From Armatimonadota bacterium (lineage in GTDB: Bacteria; Armatimonadota; Hebobacteria; CAIYQO01): a stretch of 64,000 nt of DNA. The translations under genes and the position numbers were made by a program. The stretch is taken from NCBI GenBank assembly GCA_020060775.1, contig JAGUZN010000220.1, forward strand, positions 984 to 64,983. The letters are read 5' to 3'. Numbering within the stretch: position 1 is the stretch's first letter; each line of letters opens with the position of its first letter. The notes below the pieces were generated by a model that was given only the letters and a program-made list of their open reading frames with translations, was not told the DNA's origin and made no database searches. Shown piece by piece: positions 107 through 29,201 of the stretch.

Positions 107-3016
107 ATGATTCAAGCCTGGGTCTTTTCAAAACTGGAACCAGTCAAAGATGACCCGATGGTGGTCGTGCGTGACCCGTTGGGATTGACGGAAGGCATGG
201 AGAACGCATTACATGCCTGGGGTAAAACACACACCTACGCTGTGATCCCTTGTGCGACTAACCTGCTCTTCCGATATAAATATGAAGAAGCACGGGCGGA
301 TGAAACCATTAAGAAAATACTCATCCTTGATCGTACTCCTTTGAGTCGGCGCACACGTCCTGATTATCATCGAGCAGCGGCGCCGTTCTATCCAGATATA
401 TTGGCGCAAACGCGCCCCGAGGCGTGTATCGAACTGGATCTGCGGCAGTTCTTGCGTGAACAAACAAACGATGCGTATTGGCCACAGGAAGTGAATGAGC
501 CACGCCTGGCCCGCCTGCTCATGAAATATCTCGATGGAGCTCTGCGTGCCCATGAGAATCTACGGGCGGCAAGCCCTGATCGTTTCACCGACCAGGATTT
601 AAAAACGATCATCGCTTTTGCGGCTCTCGGTGTACCGGAAGCTGCTTTTAAGAATCTTTCCGCCAGTGAGTATTGGAAGATCGGTCTGCGTGGTCATCAT
701 GAATTGCGCGGGTTGGAGCAGCTCATGCCTGAGATCACCGAGACGATCACCGGCAAACTGAAGAAGGCACCAGCCCCGTTCTGTTGGCTTGCTGATAAAT
801 ATGACCCAGACACGGTGATCCGGGCTTTTTACCTTTCCGTTGTGTTGGCACAGCATGTGACGCACTGGCAAACGCTGCCGGCGAATGTTGATCCGATCTT
901 TGGGCGTATGGGCGGCATCGCCCCCGAGACCTTGCAGGATGCTGCCCCCAAGCTGGTGAGCCTTGATCCGGCACGAGCGCAAAGCGACATTCGCGCGATG
1001 GAAGATAAGTTGACCGTTAAGAATTTGCATTTTCTGCTACTCGAACAGATGCAAATTGAGGCACGGTTCGCTGAGGTGATCGAGAAAGAGCAATACTCGG
1101 AATTATTCCGTTCCCTCTCGCTCATTCTCGCCCTTGATAATCTCTGCTCAACACACCCGACCCAGGAAGCGCAAAAGCGGGTGAGTGAGGCGTTACTGGC
1201 TAAACGTTCACAACGCGCGCTGGTTGACCTTCGCCCTTCAGCGACCTGGAAAATATTACGACAGGCATATCTCCGTGCCGTACGACTTCTCGCCTTGCGT
1301 GGGCAACTTGGCAAATTCGTCAAGGAGCTTGACCAATTGCCGGAAACTACGCAGGTGCTCTATCTGGCGCCCGGTCAAGAAAAAACCGTTGCCTTTCATG
1401 TGAAGCCGGATATTTCACTAGCCACCAATAGTGAGAGAGCTTCAGGGGAGATGCCATGGGCACTTCGGGTGTGCCCGGTATGTTATGAGCGTGGCTTAAT
1501 AGAAGAAATTAGTACGCGATCTGAAAAATTCGGATCGATCCCCGTCTTGGTTAGTTACATATGCGAAAACGGTTGCCAACCACAGAGTGGCGAACGCCTA
1601 CACAACGATCCAGATGACAAAAAGAGAGAGTATTTTAAGAAATATGATGTCGGTAAATTGGCCGAGATAGAAGAAATGGAAATACCATATTGGTATCCGA
1701 GAAATCGCATGATGAATGCCCCTGAAGATCAGGAATGTTGGGGAGTAAAATGGCGCGCTGGAACTAGTAACTTTCGAACTGTCGACGAGTTGTTTACAAA
1801 ACGAAATTTGTGGGCTCTCGCTGTACTCTTCAATGCAGCTTCTCAAGAGCAGACCAGCGATGTGCTTAGGTTTAGACTGGAAGCCATTTTACTAAATTTG
1901 TCTCGTATGCAAGGTAACACTACTGATCCTCGCTTCCCCAATAACATTATTCGAGGGACTTATTATACACCTCAAATTATGCGTGAATACTCAGTTTTGC
2001 CGTGGTATGCCGGTAAGATACGAAATCTAATTGATGGTTATTCTAAATTATACCCTTCATACCAGGGCTTTGGAGAGGTTTGCATTTCTACACAATCTGC
2101 ATGTTCAATGGATGCCATTCCAGATAATTCACTTGATTACATATTCACTGATCCACCGTATGGGGACAAGGTTCAGTATGGAGAACTCAACTTTGTATGG
2201 GAATCATGGATGGGGTGGAATACACTTTGGCATGATGATGAGATCATAATTAATGACGTCCGGGGCAAGACCGAGCTTGATTGGTCTGAAATGATGGAGT
2301 GTGTAATTAAGGAGTGTTACAGAGTCTTAAAGCCTGGTAGATGGCTCACTTTATGCTATCACGACACTTCGGAGGGAACTTGGGCACTTGTCCAGGACCT
2401 GATGAAAAACGCTGGTTTTATAGTGGACGTTTCAGGCAGTACTCTATTTATCGAGACAGAGCAGAAATCGTTCAACCAGCTTACGGCTGATATCGAAGAA
2501 ATGTTCTTTATGGCGCACCGCATCTCAGCGCTAACACACCGGCATCCCAGGAGCCAGATGGCATGCGGTCTCTACTGCATAATGGCAAAAGGCTTGCTGT
2601 ATGGATTGACGCCCGGAGAGGCCTACCGGTTTATGGTCGAACAGGGGCATCGGTGCTACAACGTCACCCCGTTTCAGCAGGAGATGTCCCATTTCGCGCG
2701 CATCCTCTCTGGCGAACTAATCGGTATGCCTATTAACGAGATTGCCTCCAGCGGCTATGTCATACATACGCTGGAGGCCAGTCTGTGGTGCCTGCTCACA
2801 ACAGGCTCATTCGAGGATGCTGTATTGACGGCGGTGAACCTGGGCGACGATACCGATACGACGGGATGCGTTGCCGGCGGGCTTGCTGGCGTGAGTTACG
2901 GAGATCATGCAATTAATGCTACCTGGTTATCAGTTATTGTCCGGTCATCTGATATGCGAGCGCTGTCGCAGCACTTTCTGGCAGTGATACCGCAAGAGAT
3001 CGGTATAGGAGTGTAG
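107..3016 (+). CDS. Mosaic 969-aa protein: unassigned N-terminal region, then a Zn-ribbon/DPPY DNA-methyltransferase module, then the C-terminal half of an ADP-ribosylglycohydrolase
   Basis: Cys ribbon at CPVC (aa 456-459) and CENGC (aa 486-490). Motif IV LDYIFTDPPYGDKVQYGELNFVW has DPPY at aa 682-685, as in N6A/N4C methylases, but I see no FxGxG/DPFxGSG motif I. From aa ~803 (nt ~2510) the sequence becomes ARH-like (ALTHRHP, GDDTDTTGCVAGGLAG). GC falls at ~1400-2490 and rises again after. Confidence 0.6.
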   Translation: MIQAWVFSKLEPVKDDPMVVVRDPLGLTEGMENALHAWGKTHTYAVIPCATNLLFRYKYEEARADETIKKILILDRTPLSRRTRPDYHRAAAPFYPDILAQTRPEACIELDLRQFLREQTNDAYWPQEVNEPRLARLLMKYLDGALRAHENLRAASPDRFTDQDLKTIIAFAALGVPEAAFKNLSASEYWKIGLRGHHELRGLEQLMPEITETITGKLKKAPAPFCWLADKYDPDTVIRAFYLSVVLAQHVTHWQTLPANVDPIFGRMGGIAPETLQDAAPKLVSLDPARAQSDIRAMEDKLTVKNLHFLLLEQMQIEARFAEVIEKEQYSELFRSLSLILALDNLCSTHPTQEAQKRVSEALLAKRSQRALVDLRPSATWKILRQAYLRAVRLLALRGQLGKFVKELDQLPETTQVLYLAPGQEKTVAFHVKPDISLATNSERASGEMPWALRVCPVCYERGLIEEISTRSEKFGSIPVLVSYICENGCQPQSGERLHNDPDDKKREYFKKYDVGKLAEIEEMEIPYWYPRNRMMNAPEDQECWGVKWRAGTSNFRTVDELFTKRNLWALAVLFNAASQEQTSDVLRFRLEAILLNLSRMQGNTTDPRFPNNIIRGTYYTPQIMREYSVLPWYAGKIRNLIDGYSKLYPSYQGFGEVCISTQSACSMDAIPDNSLDYIFTDPPYGDKVQYGELNFVWESWMGWNTLWHDDEIIINDVRGKTELDWSEMMECVIKECYRVLKPGRWLTLCYHDTSEGTWALVQDLMKNAGFIVDVSGSTLFIETEQKSFNQLTADIEEMFFMAHRISALTHRHPRSQMACGLYCIMAKGLLYGLTPGEAYRFMVEQGHRCYNVTPFQQEMSHFARILSGELIGMPINEIASSGYVIHTLEASLWCLLTTGSFEDAVLTAVNLGDDTDTTGCVAGGLAGVSYGDHAINATWLSVIVRSSDMRALSQHFLAVIPQEIGIGV

Positions 3017-3314: not shown

Positions 3315-4388
3315 TTGAAAGGCGTGGAGCAGACCGTGGCAAAGTTGTTCATGAACGGCCTACAGCTAATTCTATCTTCCGATAGCTTCACTGCATACGA
3401 GGCAGAAATGCCCGAAGATGGTAGCTTGCGGAAACTGCGCGACCGATATGGCGACGGGTGGTTTTTCCATCGTCAAGGTAATAAGGTATATGGTTTTCCA
3501 CAAGTCGATCGTCCTACCATCCCATTTGGCACGTCCGTAGCATTAAAATGCCAAGAAAACCTTTCTATGCTAGCTGCGGTAGTCGGTGATATTATAGGAC
3601 GACGTCGATTCGGAGGCCAGGTATTATTCCGTCATCGTGGTGCGGAGTTCATCAGTAGTACAAAGGAACTCATCAGTGATGTCGCCAAACAAATGCCGGA
3701 TCTTCCCGACATAGTCAAGTTATTCAAAGCTTATCCACGTTTTACTTTAGAGGCAAAAGTCCTTGAGCTACGCGATGGCGATGGTGGGATCGGGTTATTC
3801 GTTACGTTGGGAAGCAGGTGGCGTATCGAAGCACCTCTCCACGATCTGTTGAGTAAAGGTATTGACCTTCAAGGTATGTACGTCGTTCGAAGGTATCCCG
3901 AGAAAGGCCAGCGGAGGCTTGTTGGTAGAATCTCCTGCATTGATAAAGGAACCGTCAAATTGCTAGAGTCATTCGACGGTACGGCTGAGATTGCGTGCGA
4001 CGACGTGTGGCTTGAAGGGAATAGAGAAAATTTTGCCTATTGCTTGAAGCACTTACTGAAGGCGCGTTACCTATCATTTGAGACTAAGCGTAGGGAAATA
4101 GAAGACCAGTTATTGTCGGGGCCTAAATTTCAGACAACGATACAAAGCATTGCACAGTCATTTACAAATAAGCCTCCCATGCAACTCACTCCTGATCTCC
4201 AGTGCATTGTTGGCGATATGATTTCCGTGAAAAATTTCGGCGGATACTGCACTGTGCGTGCCGCTTCTCCAGTGCAATGTTGCTATGATGCTGCACGGAC
4301 GCAACGGATGGAGTATCCCTGGAAAGGGATCGAAAATTTGGTCCGTTTAGTCGTGACACCTTTACAAGAAAATCACCGACGATACTAG
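3315..4388 (+). CDS. Prokaryotic Argonaute, N-terminal half (N/L1/PAZ-like/L2 region), separated from MID-PIWI by a frame change
   Basis: 357-aa ORF ends 2 nt before the MID-PIWI ORF and lies in another frame. Its length fits the N-terminal half of a long pAgo. No motif is readable by eye. Start is uncertain (TTG 3315 or ATG 3351). Confidence 0.55.
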   Translation: MKGVEQTVAKLFMNGLQLILSSDSFTAYEAEMPEDGSLRKLRDRYGDGWFFHRQGNKVYGFPQVDRPTIPFGTSVALKCQENLSMLAAVVGDIIGRRRFGGQVLFRHRGAEFISSTKELISDVAKQMPDLPDIVKLFKAYPRFTLEAKVLELRDGDGGIGLFVTLGSRWRIEAPLHDLLSKGIDLQGMYVVRRYPEKGQRRLVGRISCIDKGTVKLLESFDGTAEIACDDVWLEGNRENFAYCLKHLLKARYLSFETKRREIEDQLLSGPKFQTTIQSIAQSFTNKPPMQLTPDLQCIVGDMISVKNFGGYCTVRAASPVQCCYDAARTQRMEYPWKGIENLVRLVVTPLQENHRRY

Positions 4389-4390
4389 TT

Positions 4391-5605
4391 GTGTTCCCCG
4401 ATAGTGAACAAGGACCTGTTGAACGATTCCTTCGTTCGTTTCGCGACGGGATATCGTCGTCAGCCTTTGCATCTGGCTTTGTCAGGAACTTTTCTCTCGT
4501 CAACTTAAAGATTGAAAAGGTGCGAGTACCCTGGCTGGGGAAAGGGAGTCAGGCTCCTGCGCAAGCGTATAGAAAGGCGATAGATGATTACTTGGCATCC
4601 GCAGATTCGGTGCCAGATGCTGGGATCGTCATTCTCCTAGACGAACATGCCAAACTTCCCGATGCGGTAAACCCGTATCTACATGCTAAATCATCATTGC
4701 TCACGGCAGGTGTCCCGGTCCAGGAACTACGGGTGCCGACTATCAAGCAAGCTGACACATCGCTTTCCTATACCCTGCGTAACATCGCTCTCGCTCTGTA
4801 TGCAAAAATGGGGGGAACCCCATGGACAGTCGACCAGGATATGACGATCAGCGATGAACTGGTGATTGGCATGGGGAGCTGCGCACTCGCAGAGAGCCGT
4901 TTTATAGAGCGTGAAAGATATGTTGGCATCACTACCGTCTTTCGAGGAGATGGCAGCTACCTACTGGGGAACATCTCCAAAGAATGTCCGTACCGTGAAT
5001 ATCCGCAAGTTCTGGAGAGCGAAACTATATCTGTATTGAATGAAATCAAATATCGGAACGGTTGGCGTCCCGGTGATACCGTGCGGATCATATTTCACAC
5101 CTACAAACCATTAAAAAATATCGAGGTAGAAGCGATTGCTGCCAAGTGTGTGCAAGCTATCAGCGGTGAGCAGAATATCGAGTTTGCATTCCTCACGATT
5201 TCTCATGATCACCCTTTTAGACTTTTTGATATCGACCAGCAAGGTATCAAGGGTACGAAAGGCATCTATGTTCCCCAGAGGGGAATTATTATGCAGCTTG
5301 GACGATACACTAGGTTGCTTTGTACAACAGGACCAGAGTTAGTCAAACGTGAAGGATTGCCTTTGCCAGCACCTCTGCTTGTTCATCTGCATCCTGCATC
5401 AACCTACCGTTCATTAGATTACCTAGCTGAACAAGTATTGAAATTTACTGCGCTCTCGTGGCGTTCGACATTGCCTGCGCCGAAACCAGTAACAATCTTT
5501 TACTCTGACCTGATTGCGCAATTCCTGGGTCGCTTACAGCGTATTCCTGATTGGTCTCCGGCAACTCTAAACGCAAAATTACGTGCGAGTCGGTGGTTTC
5601 TATGA
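4391..5605 (+). CDS. Prokaryotic Argonaute MID-PIWI half, predicted catalytically inactive
   Basis: MID-like ILVVFPD strand and NPYLHAKSSLL..VPVQEL (Y-x3-K..Q 5'-end pocket). PIWI hallmarks LRNIALALYAKMGGTPWTV and PVTIFYSDLIAQ. The positions expected for DEDX aspartates read VIGMG and IIFHTYK. This frame is already open from 4289. Confidence 0.8.
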   Translation: MFPDSEQGPVERFLRSFRDGISSSAFASGFVRNFSLVNLKIEKVRVPWLGKGSQAPAQAYRKAIDDYLASADSVPDAGIVILLDEHAKLPDAVNPYLHAKSSLLTAGVPVQELRVPTIKQADTSLSYTLRNIALALYAKMGGTPWTVDQDMTISDELVIGMGSCALAESRFIERERYVGITTVFRGDGSYLLGNISKECPYREYPQVLESETISVLNEIKYRNGWRPGDTVRIIFHTYKPLKNIEVEAIAAKCVQAISGEQNIEFAFLTISHDHPFRLFDIDQQGIKGTKGIYVPQRGIIMQLGRYTRLLCTTGPELVKREGLPLPAPLLVHLHPASTYRSLDYLAEQVLKFTALSWRSTLPAPKPVTIFYSDLIAQFLGRLQRIPDWSPATLNAKLRASRWFL

Positions 5606-6843
5606 CGACGTATTTGTCAGGAGTATATGCTCAGCAACTTAGTACCCTAGCGACACATATCGCTGATGATGCAGTGTGGCCATCTCCGTACGCCGGGTTT
5701 CTTTACTATCTGTGTAACAAATACGATCAGCAGTTTCTGGCACCTTTGATTAACCCTTCACCGCCATGTGTTGAGCTCGGGCGGCTTTACGAGGCACCGA
5801 TTCTTGCATCAGCAGGATATTTATTCGCGCTTAACCATCCTGTAGTTCGTGCAAGTTCCGAAGCTTGGCATATTGGGTTTCAACGGCTTGCTGGGCGCGA
5901 TCCCTTCCCAATTGACCGCCAGTCATTCGTATATCGTCCAATAGAACTGCTTGGTATTACACTTGGAGTGAAGCACTGCCCTAATACTACGCAGGCAGAG
6001 ATTGATTGGCTTATAAATGTGCTACAGAGTGCTGAAAGCCGGCTGAAGAGTGCGTCCTGTTGGCAGTACCTGCTTGGTATGTATGCTTCACGACTACTGG
6101 GTAATTCCTGGGCAAAGCGTTCCTGGGATATTGGGCAATTCCCTGTGGATGACTTGAGCATCGTGGTATGGCTGTGCGCCAATACTCCTGATTTAGCGTT
6201 TGAATTCGGTGTAGACCAATTATACAAGCAAGCAGAGGAATCATTACTGACCCAGTGTGCAAAAACGGAGGTTACCATCCCAGATCCCGCACGTGCTGCA
6301 ATACTCTACTCTAGTCTTGACCGAGCTGTGAGCCGGAGTATTGAATCAGAGCACGAGCGCAATTGGCAAATAGGCCGTGATCAAGCCGATGCCCTCTCAA
6401 TCGTTATCACGTTATGCCGTAGATTTGATTTGTGTGTAAGGCAACTCCAACGTAGGCAGCGAAGTCGCAATCCTTTCACTGTACAAGATGAGTATGATGT
6501 CCAAGACCTGATGCATGCTTTGTTGAAGTTACACTTTGATGATGTTCGTCCCGAGGAGTGGACACCGTCATATGCTGGCAACGCATCACGCGTCGATTTT
6601 TTGCTTAAACGAGAGATGATCGTTGTTGAGGTAAAGATGACTCGCGATAGCCTAGCTCAACGTGAGCTAGCGGACCAATTAATTATTGATAAAGAGCGGT
6701 ATCGATCACATTCTGACTGCCGTATACTGGTGTGTTTTGTTTATGATCCGGAGCATCGCTGCACGAACCCGGCAGCATTGGAGAATGACCTCAGCGAGCA
6801 GATCGGTCTATTTAGGGTTGAAGCAATCGTCTCACCTGCGTAG
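5602..6843 (+). CDS. pAgo-associated protein with a C-terminal PD-(D/E)xK nuclease-like domain
   Basis: Its ATG overlaps the pAgo stop (ATGA at 5602-5605). The C-terminal ~110 aa read DEYDVQDLMH..RVDFLLKREMIVVEVKMTR, giving an E..D..E-x-K core. The N-terminal ~300 aa are unassigned. Confidence 0.65.
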   Translation: MTTYLSGVYAQQLSTLATHIADDAVWPSPYAGFLYYLCNKYDQQFLAPLINPSPPCVELGRLYEAPILASAGYLFALNHPVVRASSEAWHIGFQRLAGRDPFPIDRQSFVYRPIELLGITLGVKHCPNTTQAEIDWLINVLQSAESRLKSASCWQYLLGMYASRLLGNSWAKRSWDIGQFPVDDLSIVVWLCANTPDLAFEFGVDQLYKQAEESLLTQCAKTEVTIPDPARAAILYSSLDRAVSRSIESEHERNWQIGRDQADALSIVITLCRRFDLCVRQLQRRQRSRNPFTVQDEYDVQDLMHALLKLHFDDVRPEEWTPSYAGNASRVDFLLKREMIVVEVKMTRDSLAQRELADQLIIDKERYRSHSDCRILVCFVYDPEHRCTNPAALENDLSEQIGLFRVEAIVSPA

Positions 6844-7290: not shown

Positions 7291-8298
7291 TTACAGATCA
7301 AGCAATGATGCCGAATTCTCTTGAAACAACACCCCCATGCGGATATACCGCTGCACCATCACATTCGACCGATGACCGGTCTGCTGCATGATAGATCGCT
7401 CGTTTGCACCTGCACGGGCGGCGGCGGTGCAGTGGCCGGCGCGCAGGGAGTGACCGCTGTAGCGTTTCGGATCAAGGCCGATCTCTTTCACCATCTTCTT
7501 GATGAGATTGGCGACGGCACGATCCGATAAGCGCTCACTGCAGAGTTTGTCATGACGGTTGATGCCGCGGAAGAGGGCGCCGCCGGTAATCCCGCTGGAT
7601 TCCAGCCAGGATTTCAAGGCACGCACTGGACAGGTTTCTTCATGAGTGCCAAATGGTATGGCGACCCAACGCCCTTCACCTTCTTGATCTGTTTTTGATC
7701 GGCGGAGGCAGATAACGACTCCTTCCTCCCTGAAGGTCAGGTCGGCGACATCAAAGGCGACCAACTCGGAGCGCCGGAAGGCGCCAGCGTATCCCAGGAG
7801 TAGCAGTGCGCGGTCCCGCCGGCCTTTCAATGTCTCTGGTAATACCGCCATGATGCGTCTCATGTCATCGGTCATCAAGGCATCGACCTGGCGGGCGGTG
7901 ACGCCGATCCGCCGGCGAATGCCGCGCATGACGGCCCGCACGGCGGCGTGTTGGGTGGGGGAGGGGTGGCCAGCGTGTTGGTGGATGGCGCTGATGGCGG
8001 CCATATAGCGCGAGAGCGTGCTGTACTTGTGGTCGGTCGTCGCCATCGCCGTCATGTAGCAGGCAATCGTCTCAGGGCTGGCCGGCATCGACGGCAAGTG
8101 GTATTGTTCGCACCAGGCCACGAACTGCTGCCAATCCCGCTCGTAGGCCTCCCGCGTGTGTTGCGAGATACCTTCCTCGATGAACTCCTGGACTTGCTCG
8201 ATCAGTGGAACGAGAAGGGTGTGATCGGGGTGCTGGTTGGCACTGGGCCCGATCCGGGCAGGCAGTGATGCTGGCTGGGTGATGGGAGCCTGATCCAT
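7291..8298 (-). CDS. Tyrosine recombinase / phage-type integrase (XerC/D-like)
   Basis: N-terminal SAM-like domain (TREAYERDWQQFVAWC). C-terminal catalytic signature RRSELVAF..HSLRAGHCT..TGHRSNVMVQRYIR (R..HxxR..H..Y). Confidence 0.85.
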   Translation of the reverse strand: MDQAPITQPASLPARIGPSANQHPDHTLLVPLIEQVQEFIEEGISQHTREAYERDWQQFVAWCEQYHLPSMPASPETIACYMTAMATTDHKYSTLSRYMAAISAIHQHAGHPSPTQHAAVRAVMRGIRRRIGVTARQVDALMTDDMRRIMAVLPETLKGRRDRALLLLGYAGAFRRSELVAFDVADLTFREEGVVICLRRSKTDQEGEGRWVAIPFGTHEETCPVRALKSWLESSGITGGALFRGINRHDKLCSERLSDRAVANLIKKMVKEIGLDPKRYSGHSLRAGHCTAAARAGANERSIMQQTGHRSNVMVQRYIRMGVLFQENSASLLDL

Positions 8299-8964: not shown

Positions 8965-9144
8965 TTGACAATCCAAGCTGAAGAGCGTATCGTTTCACCA
9001 TATTAATGCATACCTCAACTATGTCCGAGATGCATATCGCCGTCTGCATTACCTGGGAGACATAACCGTCGCATCCGGGCACGCTGCGCTTTTTTCACCT
9101 CTTCCCGGATGCCGGGAAGGGGTTTTCTTTTTCAGGGGGTCCGT
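8965..9144 (+). promoter_or_regulatory. Leader cassette X1: promoter, 19-codon uORF and intrinsic terminator upstream of a nucleotidyltransferase gene
   Basis: TTGACA 8965-8970, 17-nt spacer, TATCGT 8988-8993. uORF 9006-9065 encodes MHTSTMSEMHIAVCITWET*. Terminator at 9098-9132. Blocks CCGTCTG, TGGG, ATAACCGTCG, CCGGG and the terminator are shared with the cassette at 22590-22769. Confidence 0.55.
9098..9132 (+). terminator. Rho-independent terminator / attenuator hairpin
   Basis: CCTCTTCCCGG-ATG-CCGGGAAGGGG forms an 11-bp stem with one G-U pair, followed by TTTTCTTTTT. Confidence 0.7.
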
Positions 9145-9939
9145 TTGATTGCGCTTCGAGGCGATACCCGCTTGTTGCCTTTGGTCTCATGGTGGCAGAC
9201 AGAAATCCATACCGTGTTAAGCGACAAGCTGCAAGCGGTGGTGCTGGGCGGCAGCACGGTGCTTGGCGATTTCCAGCCGGGGTGGAGCGATGTCGATGTC
9301 TGCGTGGTGCTGCGTACGCCGATCACGGAAGCCGAAGGCGCTGTTATCGGACAGGTGCACGACGCCATGCGTGCCCACTTCATCGACGGTGGGCAAGATG
9401 GCTGGCGATCAGGTCAGGCCATTGAAGGTGCCTATATCACCGGCGAGATGTTGCAGTATGGACACGCTGGCACCTGTTACGTCGCCGGCGGTAGCACGCG
9501 CTGGTGGGGTGTGAAAGATCCTATTTCGCCGTTCGACCGCCTGATATATGCCCAACACGGTTGCTGGTTGTTTGGTGAAGAAGTGCCTATTGCCCTGCCA
9601 GATGGAAAGGCTTTGCGGGCACAATCTATCCGCGATTCGCAGGAATTCATAAACCCACCAGCCGGGTGCCTGGAATCCGCCATCTGGCTGGCCGGCATCA
9701 TGCACTGGTTGTCCCGCACGCTGGTCTTCTGGCGGGATGGGGAACTGGTATCCAAAACCGCCGCGCTGGAGCGCGAGGTCGCCGCTGGTAGACCGCTGGC
9801 GAGCGCCTTCATCCTGCCCCTGGCCTTGCGGCGGGAGGGGAGTGCAGCGTGCCGGCAGCATGTTGATGATCTTCGGTATAATTACCAGGCGAATCTTGAT
9901 ACGGCTGTGCAGTCATTGGTCGAAGTCGGACTGCTGTAA
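9145..9939 (+). CDS. Nucleotidyltransferase-domain protein (aminoglycoside/small-molecule adenylyltransferase-like)
   Basis: VVLGGSTVLGDFQPGWSDVDVCVVL matches the GS-x(n)-D-x-D polymerase-beta-type NTase motif. The ATG at 9109 lies inside the terminator hairpin, so I moved the start to TTG 9145, 5 nt after AGGGGG. Confidence 0.6.
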   Translation: MIALRGDTRLLPLVSWWQTEIHTVLSDKLQAVVLGGSTVLGDFQPGWSDVDVCVVLRTPITEAEGAVIGQVHDAMRAHFIDGGQDGWRSGQAIEGAYITGEMLQYGHAGTCYVAGGSTRWWGVKDPISPFDRLIYAQHGCWLFGEEVPIALPDGKALRAQSIRDSQEFINPPAGCLESAIWLAGIMHWLSRTLVFWRDGELVSKTAALEREVAAGRPLASAFILPLALRREGSAACRQHVDDLRYNYQANLDTAVQSLVEVGLL

Positions 9940-9951
9940 TAGGGAGGCTAT

Positions 9952-10497
9952 ATGTCCGGATGGATCGAGACTATGAGCAACGTGCAACTGCTACACCCGA
10001 CCACTGATATTGAGCCGGAATACCGGGCGTTCATCGCCGAATTTATCGAGCAGCAGGAGCCAGAGATGTTTTATCGTCTGCCGGGAGACGACTTCGCTGA
10101 ATTCGTGGCGCAGTTGCACCGAGAGGCGCGAGGCGAGGGGCTGCCGGACTGGGCCGTGCCGCAAAATACCCTCTGGGCGGTGCGCGACGCACGGCTGGTT
10201 GGCGTGTTGAAGCTGCGCCATCGCCTCACCCCGGCGCTAGAGAGCCGTGGCGGGCACATCGGCTACTTCGTGCGTCCCTCGGCGCGCGGGCGCGGAATTG
10301 CCACCCGCATGCTGGCGATGGCGCTCGACAAGGCACGAGCCCTTGGCCTCACCCGCGTGCTACTCACCTGCGACATTGACAACCATGCCTCAGCCCGCGT
10401 AATGGTGAAGAACGGCGGCGTGCGCACCACCGACAGCGCGGACCCCGGCACCGGGTTGCCGCTGGCGCGATATTGGATCGATTTGGAGACAAGATGA
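9952..10497 (+). CDS. GNAT-family N-acetyltransferase
   Basis: GHIGYFVRPSARGRGIATRMLAMALDKARALG matches the acetyl-CoA-binding motif A (R/Q-x-x-G-x-G/A). Confidence 0.75.
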   Translation: MSGWIETMSNVQLLHPTTDIEPEYRAFIAEFIEQQEPEMFYRLPGDDFAEFVAQLHREARGEGLPDWAVPQNTLWAVRDARLVGVLKLRHRLTPALESRGGHIGYFVRPSARGRGIATRMLAMALDKARALGLTRVLLTCDIDNHASARVMVKNGGVRTTDSADPGTGLPLARYWIDLETR

Positions 10498-11126
10498 CGC
10501 AGACCCACTCGGCCATCCGCTGCACCCTCTTCGACTTCGCCGGCACGCTCAGCCCCACGCCGTACTTCTGGCCGCTGGGGGCCGACTTTTGCGCGGTGGT
10601 GACGGAGGCCATCTTTACCGGGGAGAACAAGGTACGCTGGGCCAGCCAGTGGTGCCGCGGTCAGCTCACTTCGTTGGATATCGCGAATTATCTCTCCGGG
10701 TTGACCGGTCTGTCGCCGGAACGCATCCTTACCGCATTAGACGAGGGCTGTGCCAAACTGCAGTTGCATCCGGCTATCTGGCGTTTTGCACAGGCTCAGC
10801 GGGCGCAGGGACGGCGTACTGCGCTGGTGACAATCAACATGGACGTCTTCACCCGCGTCGTCGCCCCCGCGCACGGCTTTAACCGGGTGTTCGATGTGGT
10901 GGTGAACTCGGCGGACTACGGCACGGAGGAGAAGAACGCGCTGTGCGAGATTGCCTTCGGTCAGTTGGATGGCTGCACCTTCGAGAACAGCCTGCTTATC
11001 GATGATATGCCAAAGTGTCTGGACGCCTTTCGGGCATGCGGGGGGATGGCGTACCAGTATACGACGGATGAGGCGTTTGCAGAATGGGCGCAAACTCTGG
11101 AGGAGAGTGGATATGTCCTGGCCTAA
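10494..11126 (+). CDS. HAD-superfamily hydrolase
   Basis: ATGA overlap with the GNAT stop. N-terminal CTLFDFAGTL is a DxxxT-type motif I, and a late LLIDDMP motif is present. Confidence 0.55.
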   Translation: MTQTHSAIRCTLFDFAGTLSPTPYFWPLGADFCAVVTEAIFTGENKVRWASQWCRGQLTSLDIANYLSGLTGLSPERILTALDEGCAKLQLHPAIWRFAQAQRAQGRRTALVTINMDVFTRVVAPAHGFNRVFDVVVNSADYGTEEKNALCEIAFGQLDGCTFENSLLIDDMPKCLDAFRACGGMAYQYTTDEAFAEWAQTLEESGYVLA

Positions 11127-11805
11127 AGCACTATTGCTGGATTTCTACGGGACGGTGGTACTGGATGACGATGCAGCGTTGACCGCTATTTGTGAAAAAG
11201 TGGCCTTGGTTGCCGCGCAGGACGTGTCAGCCAAAGACGTCGCCTCCTACTGGTGGAGGCAGTTTACCGAACTCTTCCAACAAAGTCACGGTGACGAATT
11301 TCGAACGCAAGTGGAACTCGACATTCTCTCCCTCGAGCGGGTACTGGACCATTTCTGTGCACCACTTGATGCCAAGGCGCTAATCTCACCGCTCTTTACG
11401 TACTGGGAAACACCGGAAATGTGGCCGGAAGCGCGTGAAGTATTAGAGCAATGTGATCTGCCAATTTGCCTGGTCTCGAACATCGACAATGCAGAACTCG
11501 CTATCGCGCTACAGAGGAACAATCTCACCTTTCAGTATATCGTCACCAGCGAGGATTGCCGCGCCTACAAGCCGCATCCGGCGCCTTTTATGCGCGCGCT
11601 GGAATTACTCGGATTGGAGCCACACGAGTTATTGCATGTAGGCGATTCGTTGACCAGTGACGTGCGGGGCGCACAGGCGCTGGGCATTCCGACGTTATGG
11701 ATTAACCGGACGGGGCGAAAGCTTCCGGAAGATTGTTCGCCTGAATATGTTGCGACTGATCTATATGGCCTACTTTCGGTATGCGTAACGGCGGTAACGC
11801 CATGA
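11113..11805 (+). CDS. HAD-superfamily hydrolase (haloacid dehalogenase-like)
   Basis: LLDFYGTVV (motif I), VSNID, YKPHPAPF and HVGDSLTSDVRGAQALG (motifs III/IV). Start taken at the internal ATG 11113. Confidence 0.7.
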   Translation: MSWPKALLLDFYGTVVLDDDAALTAICEKVALVAAQDVSAKDVASYWWRQFTELFQQSHGDEFRTQVELDILSLERVLDHFCAPLDAKALISPLFTYWETPEMWPEAREVLEQCDLPICLVSNIDNAELAIALQRNNLTFQYIVTSEDCRAYKPHPAPFMRALELLGLEPHELLHVGDSLTSDVRGAQALGIPTLWINRTGRKLPEDCSPEYVATDLYGLLSVCVTAVTP

Positions 11806-12647
11806 AGGTTGAACGGTTTGATGATCCTCACGCCTTTTGCGACCGGGTGCTCCCCCTGTTGCTGCGGCATGAGGCCGAGAACAACCTGATGATCAGCGTC
11901 GCTCTGCGCCTGGCAGACGGCACCGGCACGTGGGGTGATGCCCCACCCGTGCTGTATGCGGTGGAAGATGCCGGACAGATGATAGCTGCAGCGCTGCAGA
12001 CACCGCCGCATTACCTGCAACTGACGCGGATGGGGGAAGATGCGCTTGCGTGTCTCGTTGATGCGTTACGGGCTGGCAATCATGCACTGCCGGGCGTGTT
12101 GGGGCCCGTCGGGGTGGTAGAGACATTCGCAAAGCGCTGGGCAGATGGCCGTGAGCTACAGGCACAGGTTGAGAAAGGTATGGGCATCTACCAGTTGGAG
12201 CGTGTGGTACCGCCGGCGCATCCTGGCGGGCTACAGGCGTTAGCAACCGAAGACGATATCCCCCTGCTGCTGGAATGGCTGCGAGATTTCTTCCACGACA
12301 CCGGGCTCCCGGAGCAGGAGAACGAAGCGCTCATACGCAAGGCGCTGTCTGATGAACGCTTTTTTCTCTGGCAAGCTCCTGCCCCCGTCTCGCTGGCGGC
12401 CTGCTGCGGCCCGACGCCGCACGGCATGCGCATCAACTCCGTCTATACCCCGCCGGAGCAGCGGGGCAAGGGCTATGCCTCCGCCAACGTCGCCGCGCTC
12501 AGCCAGCACCTGCTGGACAACGGCTGCCTGTTCTGTTATCTGTTTACTGATCTCGACAACCCGACCTCGAACAGCATCTACCAGAAGATCGGGTACCGGC
12601 GGGTGTGCGAGTTTACGTCGGTGCGGTTTACCGATGTGCAGGGGTAA
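11802..12647 (+). CDS. GNAT-family acetyltransferase (two-domain type)
   Basis: ATGA overlap with the upstream stop. C-terminal YTPPEQRGKGYASANVAALSQHLLDNG is motif A. Confidence 0.65.
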   Translation: MKVERFDDPHAFCDRVLPLLLRHEAENNLMISVALRLADGTGTWGDAPPVLYAVEDAGQMIAAALQTPPHYLQLTRMGEDALACLVDALRAGNHALPGVLGPVGVVETFAKRWADGRELQAQVEKGMGIYQLERVVPPAHPGGLQALATEDDIPLLLEWLRDFFHDTGLPEQENEALIRKALSDERFFLWQAPAPVSLAACCGPTPHGMRINSVYTPPEQRGKGYASANVAALSQHLLDNGCLFCYLFTDLDNPTSNSIYQKIGYRRVCEFTSVRFTDVQG

Positions 12648-12686
12648 CGGATATTGCTTATCCCATCACGGGAAAGAATGTGTGAT

Positions 12687-14564
12687 ATGGAACGCTTCGC
12701 CCCGTATACCGAGAACATCCTTCGCATTGACCCGGCGCATCATGCGAAAGCTGCCTTGATTACGACCGGGAACCTGGACAACGCGTACCAGGAATACCGC
12801 CGTGATATTCAGCGGCGGACGCTCTGGTTGTGCCAGCACGGCCAGTGCGAACCCCGGTTCTTCGCTGGGGATGACGCTCATGCGCCGGCATGGGCGCCGT
12901 CTGATCGGTGGGTCGCCTATCTCTGCCGGGCGTCCGGCACGACACAACTCTGGGTCGCCCAGTCTGATGGTACGCAACCTCGTCAAGTGACAGCCTGGAT
13001 GCCGGACGAGGATAATGCGTTTCAAGGGGCACTGATCCTATGGACCCCCGATGAGCGCAGCATGGTCTTCACATCATCTACAGGAGATGGCATCCGTATC
13101 ACGGGGGTGGCGGTATCTGGTCGCGATCCATTTGTCGTTGCCGAACTCCCGTCACCGCAAGGCCATTTGTTGGGATGGGACCTCGATGCCACGCGATGCC
13201 TGGTCTCGACGAGAACGAGTATCGTGTCTCTCGCAGTCAAAAGCGGCACCTGCGAGACACGGTGCGCAGAACAGCATGATCATGCCTGGCTCGATCATGC
13301 TGGTGATCTCTGGCTTACCCGGATCATGGATCATGAACTCCATGTTGGCCTGGTTGCCGATGCCGGAATATGCGCATGGCAATGGACATTGCCATTTGAT
13401 ACGGTGGTCGACAACATCTATGCGTTCGATGCGCAACGGCGCGTGGTCTACCTGCTGCGCCATGCAGGAATGATGCGTCAGTTACTGGCATGGCACTTAC
13501 CCACGGGAGTCGTACGTGATTGCACGCCACCTGACACCGTGGTTGCGGCAGAATGTGAACGAGTTCCATCGCCAGCGATATACAGCAACGCTTGCTGGTT
13601 TTTCGCATCGACCTCAGTGCATGCGGCGGAAGTCTACCGCGTGACCCCTGACAGTGTCCCCATGAGAATGACCAGCCGGGTACCACAGATTCAGCCCGCC
13701 ACTCTGCCGGAAAGTCGGCGCATCACCTGGCAGAGTGCGGGGTGGGAGATCGAAGGCATCCTCGTGCTGCCGACCACCCAGCAGGAAGCTGCACCACCGT
13801 ACCCCACTGTCGTGTATTTGCACGGGGGGCCGGAACTTGAGGTGCAATATGCCTTTGAGACGCTGGCCAATCGTCGCGGGCAAAGTGCTGCGTATGACCT
13901 GGCCGCCGCAGGATTTGCCGTACTGTTGCCAAACGTCCGGGGCAGCCGCGGATACGGACGGGCTTTCATGGCCGAACTGGGAGATTACCACCTGTTTGAT
14001 CAGCCGTTCGCCGATGTCATGGCGGGGGTCGATACCTTGGTCGCTTCCGGGATTGCCGACCCGGCACGGTTGGGCATTTATGGATTCAGCTACGGCGCGG
14101 AGCTGGCCCTCTGGGCTATCGGTCACACCTCGCGCTTTGCCGGGGCTGTGGGTATCTGTGGGCGGTATGATCAGGAGCATCTTGCGCGCTGTTCCGGTGC
14201 CCCGTTTCACACCCTGAACGCGACACGATTAGGGGCCGCGGACCCCCAGGAGGTCTGGCAGAAGCCAGAGCTCTGGCAGCACCTGTCACCAATGCACCAT
14301 ATCGATAAGATACAAACGCCCGTGTTGTTAGTGGAAACAGCGGCGGAACGGCGTCCTGGCACGGAAGCGCAACCGCTACTGTCGGCGCTCCTGCAGCAGG
14401 GGGTCGAGTCGCACCTGCGGTATTATCCCGAGGCGTTTCATGGTGGAGGATGGCATCTCGGTTATCAGGAAGACTACTCGCGACGGTTGGTCGCCTGGTT
14501 CCGGCATATCCTGCTGGGGGAAGCATTGCCCGCAAGGTTTAGCGTGCAACAAGAGGGTATGTAA
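12687..14564 (+). CDS. S9-family serine peptidase (prolyl oligopeptidase / acylaminoacyl-peptidase-like) with an N-terminal beta-propeller region
   Basis: Nucleophile elbow GIYGFSYGAELAL (GxSxG) lies in the C-terminal alpha/beta-hydrolase part. VVYLHGGPE is also present. Start is uncertain between 12654 and 12687. Confidence 0.7.
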   Translation: MERFAPYTENILRIDPAHHAKAALITTGNLDNAYQEYRRDIQRRTLWLCQHGQCEPRFFAGDDAHAPAWAPSDRWVAYLCRASGTTQLWVAQSDGTQPRQVTAWMPDEDNAFQGALILWTPDERSMVFTSSTGDGIRITGVAVSGRDPFVVAELPSPQGHLLGWDLDATRCLVSTRTSIVSLAVKSGTCETRCAEQHDHAWLDHAGDLWLTRIMDHELHVGLVADAGICAWQWTLPFDTVVDNIYAFDAQRRVVYLLRHAGMMRQLLAWHLPTGVVRDCTPPDTVVAAECERVPSPAIYSNACWFFASTSVHAAEVYRVTPDSVPMRMTSRVPQIQPATLPESRRITWQSAGWEIEGILVLPTTQQEAAPPYPTVVYLHGGPELEVQYAFETLANRRGQSAAYDLAAAGFAVLLPNVRGSRGYGRAFMAELGDYHLFDQPFADVMAGVDTLVASGIADPARLGIYGFSYGAELALWAIGHTSRFAGAVGICGRYDQEHLARCSGAPFHTLNATRLGAADPQEVWQKPELWQHLSPMHHIDKIQTPVLLVETAAERRPGTEAQPLLSALLQQGVESHLRYYPEAFHGGGWHLGYQEDYSRRLVAWFRHILLGEALPARFSVQQEGM

Positions 14565-18136: not shown

Positions 18137-20668
18137 CTAAATCACCACATTCACCACTCTTCCCAATACTACAATGACCTTCGCCGGCTCTCTGTCTGCC
18201 AGTGAGTATTGCACCTTCGGGCTGGCCAGCGCCAGGACCCTCACCGTGTCTTCATCGGCATCCGCCGGCACGGTCAGGCGGTCACGGACTTTGCCGTTGA
18301 CCTGGATGACCAGTATCACCTCCTCAACGCTGGCGACCGTTGCGTCTGGTGTTGGCCAGGGGTGGCGGTACAGAAAGCCCATCTGCCTCAGGCCCTCCCA
18401 CATCTCGTCGGCGATATGCGGCGCGAAAGGGGAGAGCAGCACCACCAGGTGCTCGATGGCCTCATCCAAGGCGGCAGAGCGCTGTCTATCCGGCAGGCGT
18501 TGGGACACTTCATACATCGCGTTAACCCATTCCATCAACGCCGCCAAGGCGGTGTTAAAACGGAAACTCTCCAGGTCTTCGGTGACTTTGGCGATGGTCT
18601 GGTGGGTTTTTCGGCGCAATGCCATCTCATCACCCTGCGCTTGGGCAATGCTTGTGCGCCAGACGGTGGCGTCAAAGCCCTCCGCGTGCCGGGCGACTAG
18701 CCGCCACACGCGTGCCAGAAAGCGTGCCGCACCGCGGATGCCCTCCTCGCTCCACAGCACCGTCTCCTCGAAGGGCGCGACGAACAGCTCATAGATGCGC
18801 AGCGCGTCGGCGCCGTACTGCGCGGCCATCTCGTCGGGGGTGACCACGTTGCCGTAGCTCTTGCTCATCTTCACCCAGCGCCACACCCACTGCTCCTCGG
18901 GAATGGTCGCACGCTCCTCCGGGCGCAATACCTTCCAATTCTCGATGGCGTCTTCGCCGCCCACCGTGCGGCCTGGCGTGCGCGTCAGCATCATGCCCTG
19001 GTTGCGCAGGGTGGTGAAGGGCTCGGTGAAGCCCACCAGGCCGGCATCATACAGCACCTTGGTCCAGAAGCGCGCATACAGCAGATGCATCACCGCATGC
19101 TCGGCGCCGCCCACGTACAGATCCACCGGCAGCCAGGCATCCACCGCTTCTCGTGAGAATGGTGCCTCTGTATTGTGTGGGTCTGCGAAACGCAGAAAGT
19201 ACCATGAGGAGCAGGCGAAGCCACCCATGGTATCCGTCTCGCGCCGTGCCGGACCGCCGCAGGTGGGGCAGGTCGTCTCGACGAACTCCGGGATACCCGC
19301 CAACGGTGATTCTCCGGTGCCAGTCGGCTGATACTGCTCAACCTCGGGCAGCAGCACGGGTAACTGGTCTTCGGGTACCGGCACCTCGCCGCACTGCGGG
19401 CAATGGATGATCGGAATGGGCGCTCCCCAGTAGCGCTGCCGGGAGATCAGCCAGTCGCGTAATTTGTAGGTGACCACCCCGCGGCCCAGCCCGCGTTCGT
19501 CCAACCAGCGAATGCTCTGCTGCACCAGTGCGGATGCCTCCGGTTCACCGGAGAAAGGGCCGGCGACGGTCATGCCGTCAGCATACACCGGTATCATGGG
19601 TAGGCCATAGGTCTCTGCAAACGCTGCATCGCGTGCATCATGCGCCGGTACCGCCATGATGGCGCCAGTGCCGTAGCCCATCACCACGTAATCGGCGATC
19701 CAGATGGGGATGAGGTCGCCGGTGGCCGGGTTGACGGCAGACGCGCCGGTCCACACCCCCGTCTTCTGCCGACCTTCCGCCAGCCGGTCGATTTCGCTGT
19801 GGCCCCGGGCATGGGCGATGTAGGCATCGACTTCTCTACGCTGGGTATCCGTGGTGATCTCGGCGACCAGCGGGTGCTCGGGCGCCAGCACGACAAAGGT
19901 GGCGCCCCACAGCGTATCCGGGCGTGTGGTGAAGACGCGCAAGGGTTCCGAGCGACCGACCACCGGGAAGGCGATCTCCGCGCCCTCACTGCGCCCAATC
20001 CAGTTCCGCTGCATCGCCTTGATGCCCTCCGGCCAGTCCAGGGTCTCCAGGTCGGCTAGCAGCCGGTCGGCATAGGCGGTGATGCGGAAGAACCACTGGG
20101 GCAGTTGCCGCTGTTCGATAGGCGTGTCACAGCGCCAGCAGCGGCCGTTTACCACTTCTTCATTAGCCAGCACCGTGCGATCCTGCGGGCACCAGTTCAC
20201 CGGCGCCTGCGCGCGATACGCCAACCCCATCCGATATAACAGCAGGAAAATCCATTGCGTCCAGCGGTAATACGACGGGTCGCTGGAGTTGACTTCTCTC
20301 GACCAGTCGTACGCCAGGCCGATCAGGTCCATCTGGTGGCGATAATTTGCGGCGAACTCCTGCACCATCGGTTGTGGGTGGCGCTGCAGGCGGATGGCTT
20401 CATTCTCTGCCGGCTGACCAAAGGCATCCCAGCCCATCGGATGCAGCACGTTGAACCCGCACATCGCTTTGTAGCGCAGGAAGGCATCGGTGGGCACGTA
20501 GTTCTTGAAATGCCCCACGGAAAGCCCCGCCCCGCTGGGGTAGGGGAAGAACTCCAGCCCATAATACTTCGGTCGGTCGTGGCATAATTCGGCTTCGAAC
20601 AGCCGCGCCTCGCGCCAGCGCTGCTGCCATTTTCGTTCTATCACTTGAAATTCATATCTTTCCAGCAT
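18137..20668 (-). CDS. leuS: Leucyl-tRNA synthetase
   Basis: MLERYEFQVIERKWQQRW N-terminus, PYPSGAGLSVGH (HIGH region), KMSKSYGNVV (KMSKS), and a CP1 editing insertion. Start is ATG 20668 after GGAGGAGG. Confidence 0.95.
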   Translation of the reverse strand: MLERYEFQVIERKWQQRWREARLFEAELCHDRPKYYGLEFFPYPSGAGLSVGHFKNYVPTDAFLRYKAMCGFNVLHPMGWDAFGQPAENEAIRLQRHPQPMVQEFAANYRHQMDLIGLAYDWSREVNSSDPSYYRWTQWIFLLLYRMGLAYRAQAPVNWCPQDRTVLANEEVVNGRCWRCDTPIEQRQLPQWFFRITAYADRLLADLETLDWPEGIKAMQRNWIGRSEGAEIAFPVVGRSEPLRVFTTRPDTLWGATFVVLAPEHPLVAEITTDTQRREVDAYIAHARGHSEIDRLAEGRQKTGVWTGASAVNPATGDLIPIWIADYVVMGYGTGAIMAVPAHDARDAAFAETYGLPMIPVYADGMTVAGPFSGEPEASALVQQSIRWLDERGLGRGVVTYKLRDWLISRQRYWGAPIPIIHCPQCGEVPVPEDQLPVLLPEVEQYQPTGTGESPLAGIPEFVETTCPTCGGPARRETDTMGGFACSSWYFLRFADPHNTEAPFSREAVDAWLPVDLYVGGAEHAVMHLLYARFWTKVLYDAGLVGFTEPFTTLRNQGMMLTRTPGRTVGGEDAIENWKVLRPEERATIPEEQWVWRWVKMSKSYGNVVTPDEMAAQYGADALRIYELFVAPFEETVLWSEEGIRGAARFLARVWRLVARHAEGFDATVWRTSIAQAQGDEMALRRKTHQTIAKVTEDLESFRFNTALAALMEWVNAMYEVSQRLPDRQRSAALDEAIEHLVVLLSPFAPHIADEMWEGLRQMGFLYRHPWPTPDATVASVEEVILVIQVNGKVRDRLTVPADADEDTVRVLALASPKVQYSLADREPAKVIVVLGRVVNVVI

Positions 20669-24004: not shown

Positions 24005-24025
24005 CGACAGCATGGCACCTGCAGT

Positions 24026-27351: not shown

Positions 27352-27504
27352 GTGCACGTCTGCTGCAGGTCGAAGTCGTAACCGGGTGCTTCGATGTCGA
27401 TTGCGCATGTGGCTGAGCATGCTTGAATATTGAATCTACACATGATGTCCCTGCCGCGCAACGATGCCGGCATGTGCTGACCTGATGCCGTCAGCATCTT
27501 TCGT

Positions 27505-29088: not shown

Positions 29089-29201
29089 CATGCCTGGAGG
29101 ATGAATATCGCGCCAGCGCCGGAGTCGGCGATTACACGGGGTGATGATGTGTTATTTTTTCTCGATATGGCGGAGTGCAACAAGCAGCGGGGAGATCAGC
29201 A

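Follow-up and report, generated by a model that had tools for sequence, protein, structure and literature searches.

The 64,000-nucleotide stretch analysed here (the window; contig JAGUZN010000220.1 of the Armatimonadota assembly GCA_020060775.1) carries two short cassettes in front of enzyme genes, copy 1 at 8965-9144 and copy 2 at 22590-22769, both on the forward strand. Judging from the sequence and its relatives, each is very probably a classical ribosome-dependent leader-peptide transcription attenuator. They belong to a previously undescribed family, recognisable by sequence and absent from Rfam, with at least 36 distinct loci in Armatimonadota. The kind of regulation is already known: leader-peptide attenuation is a textbook mechanism, documented mostly in Proteobacteria, Actinobacteria and Deinococcus. 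What is notable is that one switch module is reused with differing sensor codons and has been recruited to operons of resistance or detoxification type. What would such a leader sense when it stands before enzymes of this kind?

The order of elements read in copy 1 by the original prediction (promoter, 19-codon upstream open reading frame or uORF, CCGGG box, intrinsic terminator, gene) is borne out by sequence reading and a consensus scan, and the paralogous cassette that it placed at 22590-22769 repeats this order; in both, the distance from the -35 box to the gene start is exactly 180 nt (coordinates of all features are given in Table 1). The two copies were compared by anchors, since plain MAFFT pairwise alignment misaligned the uORFs; in this comparison similarity ends at the -35 box and no flanking repeats were found. 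The uORF stop codon of copy 1 directly precedes CCGTCG, and the motif TGGN6TARCCGTCG has exact matches in the 64 kb only at the two cassettes. The ATG of copy 1 lies 12 nt past the -10 box without a Shine-Dalgarno (SD) sequence, so that the 5' untranslated region would be ~5-6 nt long (near-leaderless), while the ATG of copy 2 lies 6 nt past the -10 box and its mRNA would thus be leaderless. Ribosome binding sites (RBSs) precede both target genes, AGGGGG before a TTG start at 9145 for copy 1 and AGGAGGG before an ATG at 22770 for copy 2.

How can such a leader switch? The CCGGG box of copy 1 had been proposed as one strand of a possible antiterminator. The box exists, although not at 9073-9077, where it was first placed and where the sequence reads ATCCG; it occupies 9075-9079. 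The pairing itself is stronger than was claimed: GCATCCGGG (9071-9079) is the exact reverse complement, over 9 bp, of CCCGGATGC (9104-9112), which is made up of the 5' arm and the loop of the terminator. In copy 2, GTGCCGGGA (22690-22698) pairs with TCCCGGTAC (22724-22732), again over 9 bp including one G-U. These two segments are called strands 2 and 3, and strand 4 is the 3' arm of the terminator. Strand 2 can also pair backwards with a strand 1 inside the uORF, giving an anti-antiterminator; in copy 2 the loop of this hairpin holds the last codon and the stop codon. Another candidate, direct pairing of the uORF 3' end (CCUGGGAGA) with the 5' arm of the terminator, makes 8 of 9 pairs in copy 1, fails in relatives and was dropped.

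Are the two cassettes alone? By a first search route, homologues of the nucleotidyltransferase downstream of copy 1 were collected and their upstream regions checked for the leader. They are located in operons with GNAT and methyltransferase genes, three of which open with the same leader (L002, L003/L004 and L005); at L001 and L006/L007 the nucleotidyltransferase is internal to other operons, which have no such leader. A pattern scan for strand 2 and the terminator (CCGGG-N12-40-YYYTCCCGG-N5-6-GGGARGGG-NTNT) gave 56 matches in one genome per species and, with the GGGARGGG block loosened to GGGRRGGG, 91 in metagenomes. About two-thirds of the pattern matches were false positives, among them tRNA 3' ends followed by terminators (L049, L079, L093, L105, L144) and chance GC-rich ORFs (L024, L148). 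With duplicates and chance matches discarded there are 36 distinct members, 34 loci besides the two window copies. All taxonomically named members come from Armatimonadota metagenome-assembled genomes (MAGs), namely UR.bin144 (four loci), JPAS_maxbin.148 (two) and SMAG_U4744 (one), and the methyltransferase of copy 2 is closely similar, in an unquantified comparison, to its JPAS_maxbin.148 counterpart. A covariance model, R1, was built from 34 members with both window copies among its training sequences. It finds the two copies at 85 and 62.8 bits, scores that follow by construction as both had been used for training, and the next forward-strand match in the window has 11.7 bits; R1 detects no further copy in the window and just one in each related locus. 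No Rfam model matched anywhere in the window at gathering thresholds, those for Trp, Thr, Leu and His leaders, riboswitches and the T-box included, and at E <= 10 only chance-level matches appeared around the copies. In the literature library that was searched, no paper joins Armatimonadetes with attenuator. As a side observation, the terminator part of R1 matches a GC-rich palindromic hairpin at 56584-56611 on both strands (13.5 and 11.7 bits), between convergent or divergent genes, which is probably a bidirectional terminator.

Comparison within the family indicates that the uORF is translated. A near-consensus promoter of the TTGACA-17-TATACT type stands at the same place in all 36 members, and an ATG-initiated uORF of 15-22 codons (19 codons in 16 members) follows in every one, its stop codon 4-10 nt ahead of the CCGGG box. 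The stop codon itself turns over (16 TAG, 11 TAA, 9 TGA), and the only indel seen, in L005, is a one-codon (3-nt) deletion that keeps the frame. In 20 of the 36 the ATG lies 4-12 nt past the -10 hexamer, leaderless or nearly so, and the others have a GGAG-type SD. The original prediction had called for a covariance-model scan and for further copies in which the fate of the uORF could be followed; it is kept throughout, and these 36 leaders give the idea of ribosome-sensing attenuation its comparative support. Substitutions sorted by codon position show no excess at the third (17/14/16); such a count cannot separate coding from structure because the 3' end of the uORF is also constrained by RNA pairing (ACC UGG GAG ACA is nearly invariant).

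What do the leaders read? The first downstream gene is functionally identifiable in 11 members, and in ten of them it is a gene of amino-acid biosynthesis or for an aminoacyl-tRNA synthetase (aaRS). In 10 of 10 interpretable cases the codons at positions -9 to -4, just upstream of strand 1, fit that gene. The leader window IIIGI precedes isoleucyl-tRNA synthetase (ileS, two members) and AIIDI citramalate synthase; VTTT or VTTP precedes threonyl-tRNA synthetase (thrS, three members) and aspartate-semialdehyde dehydrogenase (asd); SVISSS precedes seryl-tRNA synthetase (serS); and RR precedes acetylornithine aminotransferase (argD) and an ornithine-carbamoyltransferase-like (OTCase-like) gene. 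Cognate residues at -9 to -4 total 30, which none of 20,000 random assignments of leaders to genes reached in a permutation test. As these sister leaders carry runs of cognate codons before ileS, thrS, serS, asd, argD and the citramalate synthase gene, the scaffold appears to be one of classical charged-tRNA attenuation. The window copies fall into two other groups. Class A (15 members including copy 1) has control windows that are 79% Val, Thr or Ile and that keep this composition while the order is permuted (IAVCI, IVITV, IVVV, MVVVN, IVAVI, ILVLT). Class B (7 members including copy 2) has aromatic pairs, FY, YF, LY and once HH, followed by an invariant Ala-Trp. The permutation within both classes speaks for a counting of codons and against an arrest peptide of specific sequence. 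Four further leaders on the same scaffold, L077 (leader MQFAKQVQMNISRHHAWVT), L030, L033 and L135, have the control windows His-His, PLATGK, VRH and SST, respectively, and precede methyltransferase or GNAT genes instead of amino-acid genes; the non-biosynthetic regulon would therefore extend beyond classes A and B.

The RNA switch is conserved along with the reading frame. In the family alignment the terminator helix is paired in 97.6% of cells, with three covarying pairs, and the antiterminator CCGGG:CCCGG is predicted in 35 of the 36 members. One antiterminator pair, which joins the nucleotide just 5' of CCGGG to the opening base of the terminator loop, is free of the search pattern; it is U-A in 29 members, A-U in 5 and G-U in 2, hence paired in 36 of 36, and this covariation supports the antiterminator, as nothing else would make the loop base follow an upstream one. 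Strand 2 pairs back into the uORF in 29/36 members, compared with 41% for shuffled uORFs. In most classes its partner is a CCYGG at codons -4/-3, with the stop codon in the hairpin loop, and this helix (1b:2) is 88.6% paired in the alignment vs at most 60% when the partner is slid. In class A the partner is UCCGAG at codons 7-8 and/or CCUGGG at Thr16-Trp17, and in class B it is UCCCGU at codons -8/-7 together with inner helices. Where must a ribosome stand to free strand 2? In a footprint simulation, with the bases from -12 to +14 nt around the P site masked and transcripts truncated before strand 4, the antiterminator forms in 30-34 of the 36 members for a P site placed 6-8 codons ahead of the stop, where the cognate codons sit; the number falls to 12 without a ribosome and to 9 once the A site has reached the stop codon. 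For copy 2 it is absent without a ribosome, has 8-9 bp for P sites from -10 to -2 and is gone at the stop. The module lies on the same strand as the next gene in every case, 19-125 nt upstream of the gene start. Strand 2 and the terminator are unusually similar between paralogous copies and across species, and the segment between them varies in sequence and length (27-44 nt from the start of CCGGG to the start of CCCGG).

These features suggest the following order of events. A strong constitutive promoter of the sigma-70 type would start the mRNA almost directly at the 19-codon uORF, and the leader could then form three mutually exclusive helices, built from strand 1 in the last two-thirds of the uORF, strand 2 with its CCGGG a few nt past the stop codon, and strands 3 and 4, the arms of the terminator. 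Without a ribosome, 1:2 would form, 3:4 would terminate transcription and the operon would be off. A ribosome at the stop codon would place its footprint over the 5' part of strand 2, so 3:4 would form here too and the operon would again be off. A ribosome stalled with its A site ~4-8 codons before the stop would melt or cover strand 1 and leave strand 2 free; 2:3 would then form before strand 4 is made, RNA polymerase would read through and the operon would be on. The signal would be slow decoding of the window codons. By analogy with the sister leaders, copy 1 may read Ile/Val (I-A-V-C-I; proposed control codons I11, A12, V13, C14 and I15) and copy 2 aromatic residues (F..Y.W; proposed control codons F12, Y15 and W17).

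Several points weigh against this mechanism. The evidence on structure is throughout predicted or comparative. The blocks CCGGG, TCCCGG and GGGRRGGG were fixed by the search pattern, so pairs within them cannot covary, and the family members are phylogenetically related. In copy 1 the truncated leader without a ribosome already favours 2:3 at equilibrium (-22.9 kcal/mol); the 1a:2 fold, calculated for a shorter 5' part and hence not like-for-like, has -20.7 kcal/mol, and the anti-antiterminator test is energetically ambiguous for this copy. With a terminating ribosome and a footprint of +14 nt, 5 bp of its 2:3 helix remain. Given the equilibrium preference and these surviving pairs, the off state of copy 1 would have to rely on kinetics, with 1:2 folding co-transcriptionally. 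The minimum free energy (MFE) of the whole leader has unremarkable z-scores (-1.7 for copy 1 and -1.2 for copy 2), as may be expected of a switch. The control codons of the window copies are single and mixed, without the long runs of their sisters. Finally, nothing evident connects the target enzymes of the window copies with the metabolism of Ile/Val or of aromatic amino acids, which is the main unexplained point and keeps an antibiotic-sensing reading alive.

We take the leader to be a charged-tRNA or translation-speed sensor. What, then, is the natural inducer? It may well be a shortage of charged tRNA for the control codons, from whatever cause, a claim that we hold just short of probable. 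A drug that targets translation and acts through the nascent peptide is a possible but lesser candidate, and non-specific slowing takes the share left by these two.

The drug-based alternative in its specific form holds that, as in the erm, cat, cmlA, Bacillus subtilis yxjB and Escherichia coli ToiL systems, an antibiotic and the leader peptide together stall the ribosome in the uORF, the antiterminator opens and a resistance operon is induced. The scaffold could serve this purpose, as it answers any stall in the window in the footprint simulation, and copy 1 has an I-A-V that may resemble the IAVV motif of ErmAL1. The first gene of copy 1 points the same way. Its product, called ANT-like in the original prediction, is predicted with a local distance difference test score (pLDDT) of 95.6, and its 13 best Foldseek matches in the PDB are all AadA, ANT(3'')(9) or AAD(9) structures, matched over the full length with template modelling (TM) scores of 0.59-0.68 at 13-17% identity; by sequence it reaches AadA at E = 0.01 only. 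ANT-like is therefore an apt name at the level of the predicted fold only, the fold being that of the aminoglycoside adenylyltransferases. The operons of classes A and B, here and in relatives, hold GNATs, methyltransferases, nucleotidyltransferases, AAA_18 kinase-like proteins and one major facilitator superfamily (MFS) pump. Precedents exist as well, in the tylosin-triggered transcription attenuation of a methyltransferase by a leader peptide (yxjB, PMC6851288) and in a uORF that senses multiple drugs (ToiL, PMC12121999). Nevertheless, this alternative is unlikely. Close relatives have their control-window residues in permuted order, where an arrest peptide would be conserved in order; unlike in erm and cat, the downstream SD is left unsequestered; at E <= 1e-5 the nucleotidyltransferase has no NCBIfam match, resistance models included, and the copy 2 methyltransferase matches no NCBIfam resistance model; and the identity to AadA is low, although the fold is AadA-like. 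Sister leaders on the identical scaffold read as amino-acid sensors, with cognate codons before aaRS and biosynthesis genes, and an erm/cat-type leader, which the original prediction had in mind, is not the closest model.

Could read-through follow whenever the first ribosome lags behind RNA polymerase (few ribosomes, poor leaderless initiation, elongation stress), with codon identity irrelevant? Initiation is leaderless or nearly so in the 20 members noted above, the footprint model permits read-through over a broad range of ribosome positions and the control codons of the window copies are mixed. Such a general sensor of translation capacity is improbable as it leaves unexplained both the tight codon-gene match in 10/10 sister leaders and the class-specific Ile/Val or aromatic composition.

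The cassettes might also have no cis role for their operons, being small mobile or duplicated promoter-terminator modules, or free-standing genes for a small RNA (sRNA) or small protein. The similarity of strand 2 and the terminator between paralogues and across species would fit, copy 1 adjoins an integrase and a defence island, and attenuator-derived sRNAs that act in trans are known (PMC6614838). We regard this as very improbable: each locus has a single copy, with no flanking repeats and no similarity past the -35 box, and the module keeps its strand and its distance from the next gene, also before housekeeping genes with matching codons.

Is the leader a tryptophan sensor, like the trp attenuator or TnaC? 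The original prediction drew attention to a conserved Trp17, and Trp is indeed found at -3 in 20 of the 36 leaders and is invariant in class B beside Phe/Tyr. Its conservation is largely a constraint of the RNA. Codons -4/-3 are NCC-NGG in most members (ACC at -4 in 22/36; at -3 UGG in 20, CGG in 6, AGG in 1 and GGG in 1), and ACC-UGG supplies the CCYGG arm that pairs with CCGGG; a change of UGG to CGG keeps the pairing and turns Trp into Arg. Leaders that sense Arg and Ile also contain Trp, other leaders have Arg (CGG or AGG) or Thr in its place, and no trp genes lie downstream. The defining residues of TnaC (W12, D16, P24) and its Rho dependence are absent, the terminal residue being Thr or Pro, and the output is an intrinsic terminator; a ribosome at the stop would favour termination, the opposite of the TnaC stop-codon stalling that blocks Rho. 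A tryptophan-specific sensor is thus hardly credible. Least plausible of all is a riboswitch or protein-binding leader RNA working without uORF translation, whose terminator/antiterminator architecture is common to riboswitch expression platforms but for which neither an Rfam match, even at permissive thresholds, nor a conserved aptamer-like core was seen (what lies between strand 2 and the terminator varies), and which would leave uORF conservation, stop-codon turnover and codon-gene matching unexplained; neither it nor the mobile unit, both raised in the original prediction, found support.

How does the family relate to known attenuators? In E. coli, the trp, thr and ilv leaders are established cases of this attenuation logic. 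The amino-acid attenuators of Proteobacteria (trp, thr, ilvGMEDA/ilvBN, his, leu, pheA, pheST) share with the family a translated leader peptide with control codons, the helices 1:2, 2:3 and 3:4, the last an intrinsic terminator, and a stop-codon position at which a ribosome that terminates hides strand 2; the class A window, being rich in Ile, Val and Thr, is similar to the ilv and thr leaders. The family differs in that it has no sequence or Rfam similarity to them, is leaderless or nearly so and short (15-22 codons with 2-5 control codons), uses one conserved switch module in many operons and, in the window copies, regulates non-biosynthetic enzymes. Elements of the same kind are reported from Deinococcus deserti, where leaderless leader peptides enriched in the matching residue precede tRNA-synthetase and amino-acid genes (PMC4007540). 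Common to both are the 5' AUG at or next to the transcription start, short cognate-rich peptides and aaRS or biosynthesis targets (as at L044, L059, L074, L081 and others); the D. deserti leaders belong to another phylum, and methyltransferase, GNAT or nucleotidyltransferase operons are not known to be among their targets. Leader-peptide control outside Proteobacteria, with leaderless sensor uORFs, is also known from Actinobacteria (trp, ilvB and the Streptomyces attenuators at trpS and leuS, PMC1262725) and from the poly-Cys uORFs of mycobacteria (bioRxiv 10.1101/834739), but several of these systems have no clear terminators or are translational, whereas the Armatimonadota family has an unambiguous intrinsic terminator and an antiterminator. 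Drug-inducible leaders (ermC/ermA and cat/cmlA, translational; yxjB, transcriptional; ToiL) likewise remodel the leader RNA through a ribosome stalled on a short uORF and have resistance-type targets comparable to the methyltransferase, ANT-fold nucleotidyltransferase and GNAT genes found here. They use sequence-specific arrest peptides, and several free an SD or block Rho, in contrast to the permuted order and intrinsic terminator output of this family.

Table 1. Features of the two cassettes and of the genes downstream of them (window coordinates).
Feature	Position	Strand	Description
Copy 1 promoter	TTGACA 8965-8970; TATCGT 8988-8993	+	17 nt spacer; consensus scan score 10/12
Copy 1 leader uORF	ATG 9006 to TAA 9063-9065	+	19 codons; peptide MHTSTMSEMHIAVCITWET; Trp is codon 17
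Copy 1 strand 1a	9022-9035	+	UGUCCG.GAUGCAU, codons 6-10; predicted to pair with strand 2 as anti-antiterminator (MFE of leader 5' part)
Copy 1 strand 1b	9052-9057	+	CCUGGG (Thr16-Trp17 codons and a G); alternative partner of UCCGGG
Copy 1 strand 2	9071-9079	+	GCATCCGGG; antiterminator 5' strand, begins 5 nt past the stop codon
Copy 1 intrinsic terminator	stem-loop 9097-9123, T-run to 9132	+	12 bp, 8 GC; -21.2 kcal/mol
Copy 1 strand 3	9104-9112	+	CCCGGATGC
Nucleotidyltransferase, first copy 1 gene	9145-9939	+	264 amino acids, TTG start; Pfam NTP_transf_2
Rest of presumed copy 1 operon	9952-14564	+	GNAT, HAD, HAD, GNAT, S9 peptidase; Pfam, same strand, tight spacing
Copy 2 promoter	TTGACA 22590-22595; TATACT 22613-22618	+	17 nt spacer; consensus scan score 11/12
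Copy 2 leader uORF	22625-22684	+	19 codons and TAG; peptide MLFINPVIEHTFRLYAWAP
Copy 2 strand 1	22648-22678	+	5' arm of composite anti-antiterminator hairpin: UUCCG 22658-22662, GUACG 22666-22670, GGCU 22675-22678
Copy 2 strand 2	22690-22698	+	GTGCCGGGA; antiterminator 5' strand; CCGGG at 22693-22697
Copy 2 intrinsic terminator	22719-22752	+	stem-loop 22719-22743 and T-tract; strand 3 is 22724-22732; 11 bp; -21.5 kcal/mol
Methyltransferase, first copy 2 gene	22770-23606	+	class I, S-adenosylmethionine (SAM)-dependent, 278 amino acids; generic Pfam/NCBIfam matches only
Genes after copy 2	23552-30008	+	DUF4440, unknown, methyltransferase, CN-hydrolase, methyltransferase, polysaccharide deacetylase, methyltransferase; presumed extent of operon

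The leaders bear on gene annotation. The public nucleotidyltransferase protein, P0001 (276 amino acids; 9109-9939), starts at an ATG at 9109 that lies inside the loop of the attenuator terminator; the TTG at 9145, preceded by an RBS, and the N-termini of homologues suggest the shorter 264-residue product. Similarly, a mechanically called ORF at 22590-23606 spans the whole copy 2 leader. PDB sequence searches with the two GNATs of the window were uninformative. Elsewhere, methyltransferases and GNATs of the Acetyltransf_3 type, some in tandem, make up the arrays of class A operons, and one class A leader precedes panB. Genes for class I SAM methyltransferases are unusually dense in the window at 22770-30008 and 41908-42699 (starts at 22770, 24928, 26563, 29175 and 41908), interspersed with hydrolases. 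Just upstream of copy 1 there is a stretch resembling a defence island (3315-6843, forward strand), in which a 404-residue Piwi-domain protein (short prokaryotic Argonaute, 4391-5605) is flanked by an unannotated ORF of 357 residues (3315-4388) and, at 5551-6843, a 430-residue protein whose restriction endonuclease domain is of the DpnII/MboI type; between this stretch and copy 1 lies a tyrosine integrase (7291-8298, reverse strand). On the reverse strand upstream of leuS (18137-20752), a Leu-rich uORF at 20749-20832 (MRILFIQLSLQTTGLLLTKGSGRFAAG, followed by its stop) stands behind a TGGACA-17-TATAAT promoter, with its LLL codons in the 5' arm of an 11-bp hairpin and its TGA overlapping the annotated GTG start of leucyl-tRNA synthetase. 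This leader shows no clear T-run terminator and no match to R1, and may be a Leu-sensing leader of different build. Other features of the window are an AbiEi antitoxin and AbiEii nucleotidyltransferase toxin pair (30302-31917, forward strand), a type IV toxin-antitoxin or abortive-infection module, and a 969-residue protein (107-3016, forward strand) whose only recognised domain is a C-terminal ADP-ribosylglycohydrolase.

Why would tRNA-charging sensors stand before such operons? MccE/RimL-type GNATs detoxify aminoacyl-adenylate mimics that block aaRSs (PMC4964394). It is tempting, if speculative, to propose that in classes A and B, tRNA-charging sensors that once served amino-acid and aaRS genes have been rewired to small-molecule-modifying enzymes. 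Through decoding (Ile/Val in copy 1, Phe/Tyr/Trp in copy 2) they would sense aaRS inhibitors or toxic amino-acid analogues and induce the enzymes that inactivate them, that is, the RimL/MccE-type Acetyltransf_3 GNATs, the AadA-fold nucleotidyltransferase, the SAM methyltransferases, the HAD phosphatases and the S9 peptidase; the module with its exchangeable codons would be a plug-and-play cassette that spread through the genome. For Armatimonadota, a little-studied phylum, the family offers a codon-to-gene code that is consistent within itself for Ile, Thr, Ser and Arg. It could help to assign regulons and correct gene starts in MAGs of this phylum, the database start of the nucleotidyltransferase being an example. 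The less ordinary part is that most of the members found, both window copies included, appear to control arrays of methyltransferase, GNAT and ANT-fold genes instead of amino-acid genes. Should impairment of tRNA charging or of translation induce these operons as defences, an old switch would be newly wired, and the leaders would also offer a route to discovering resistance or detoxification enzymes.

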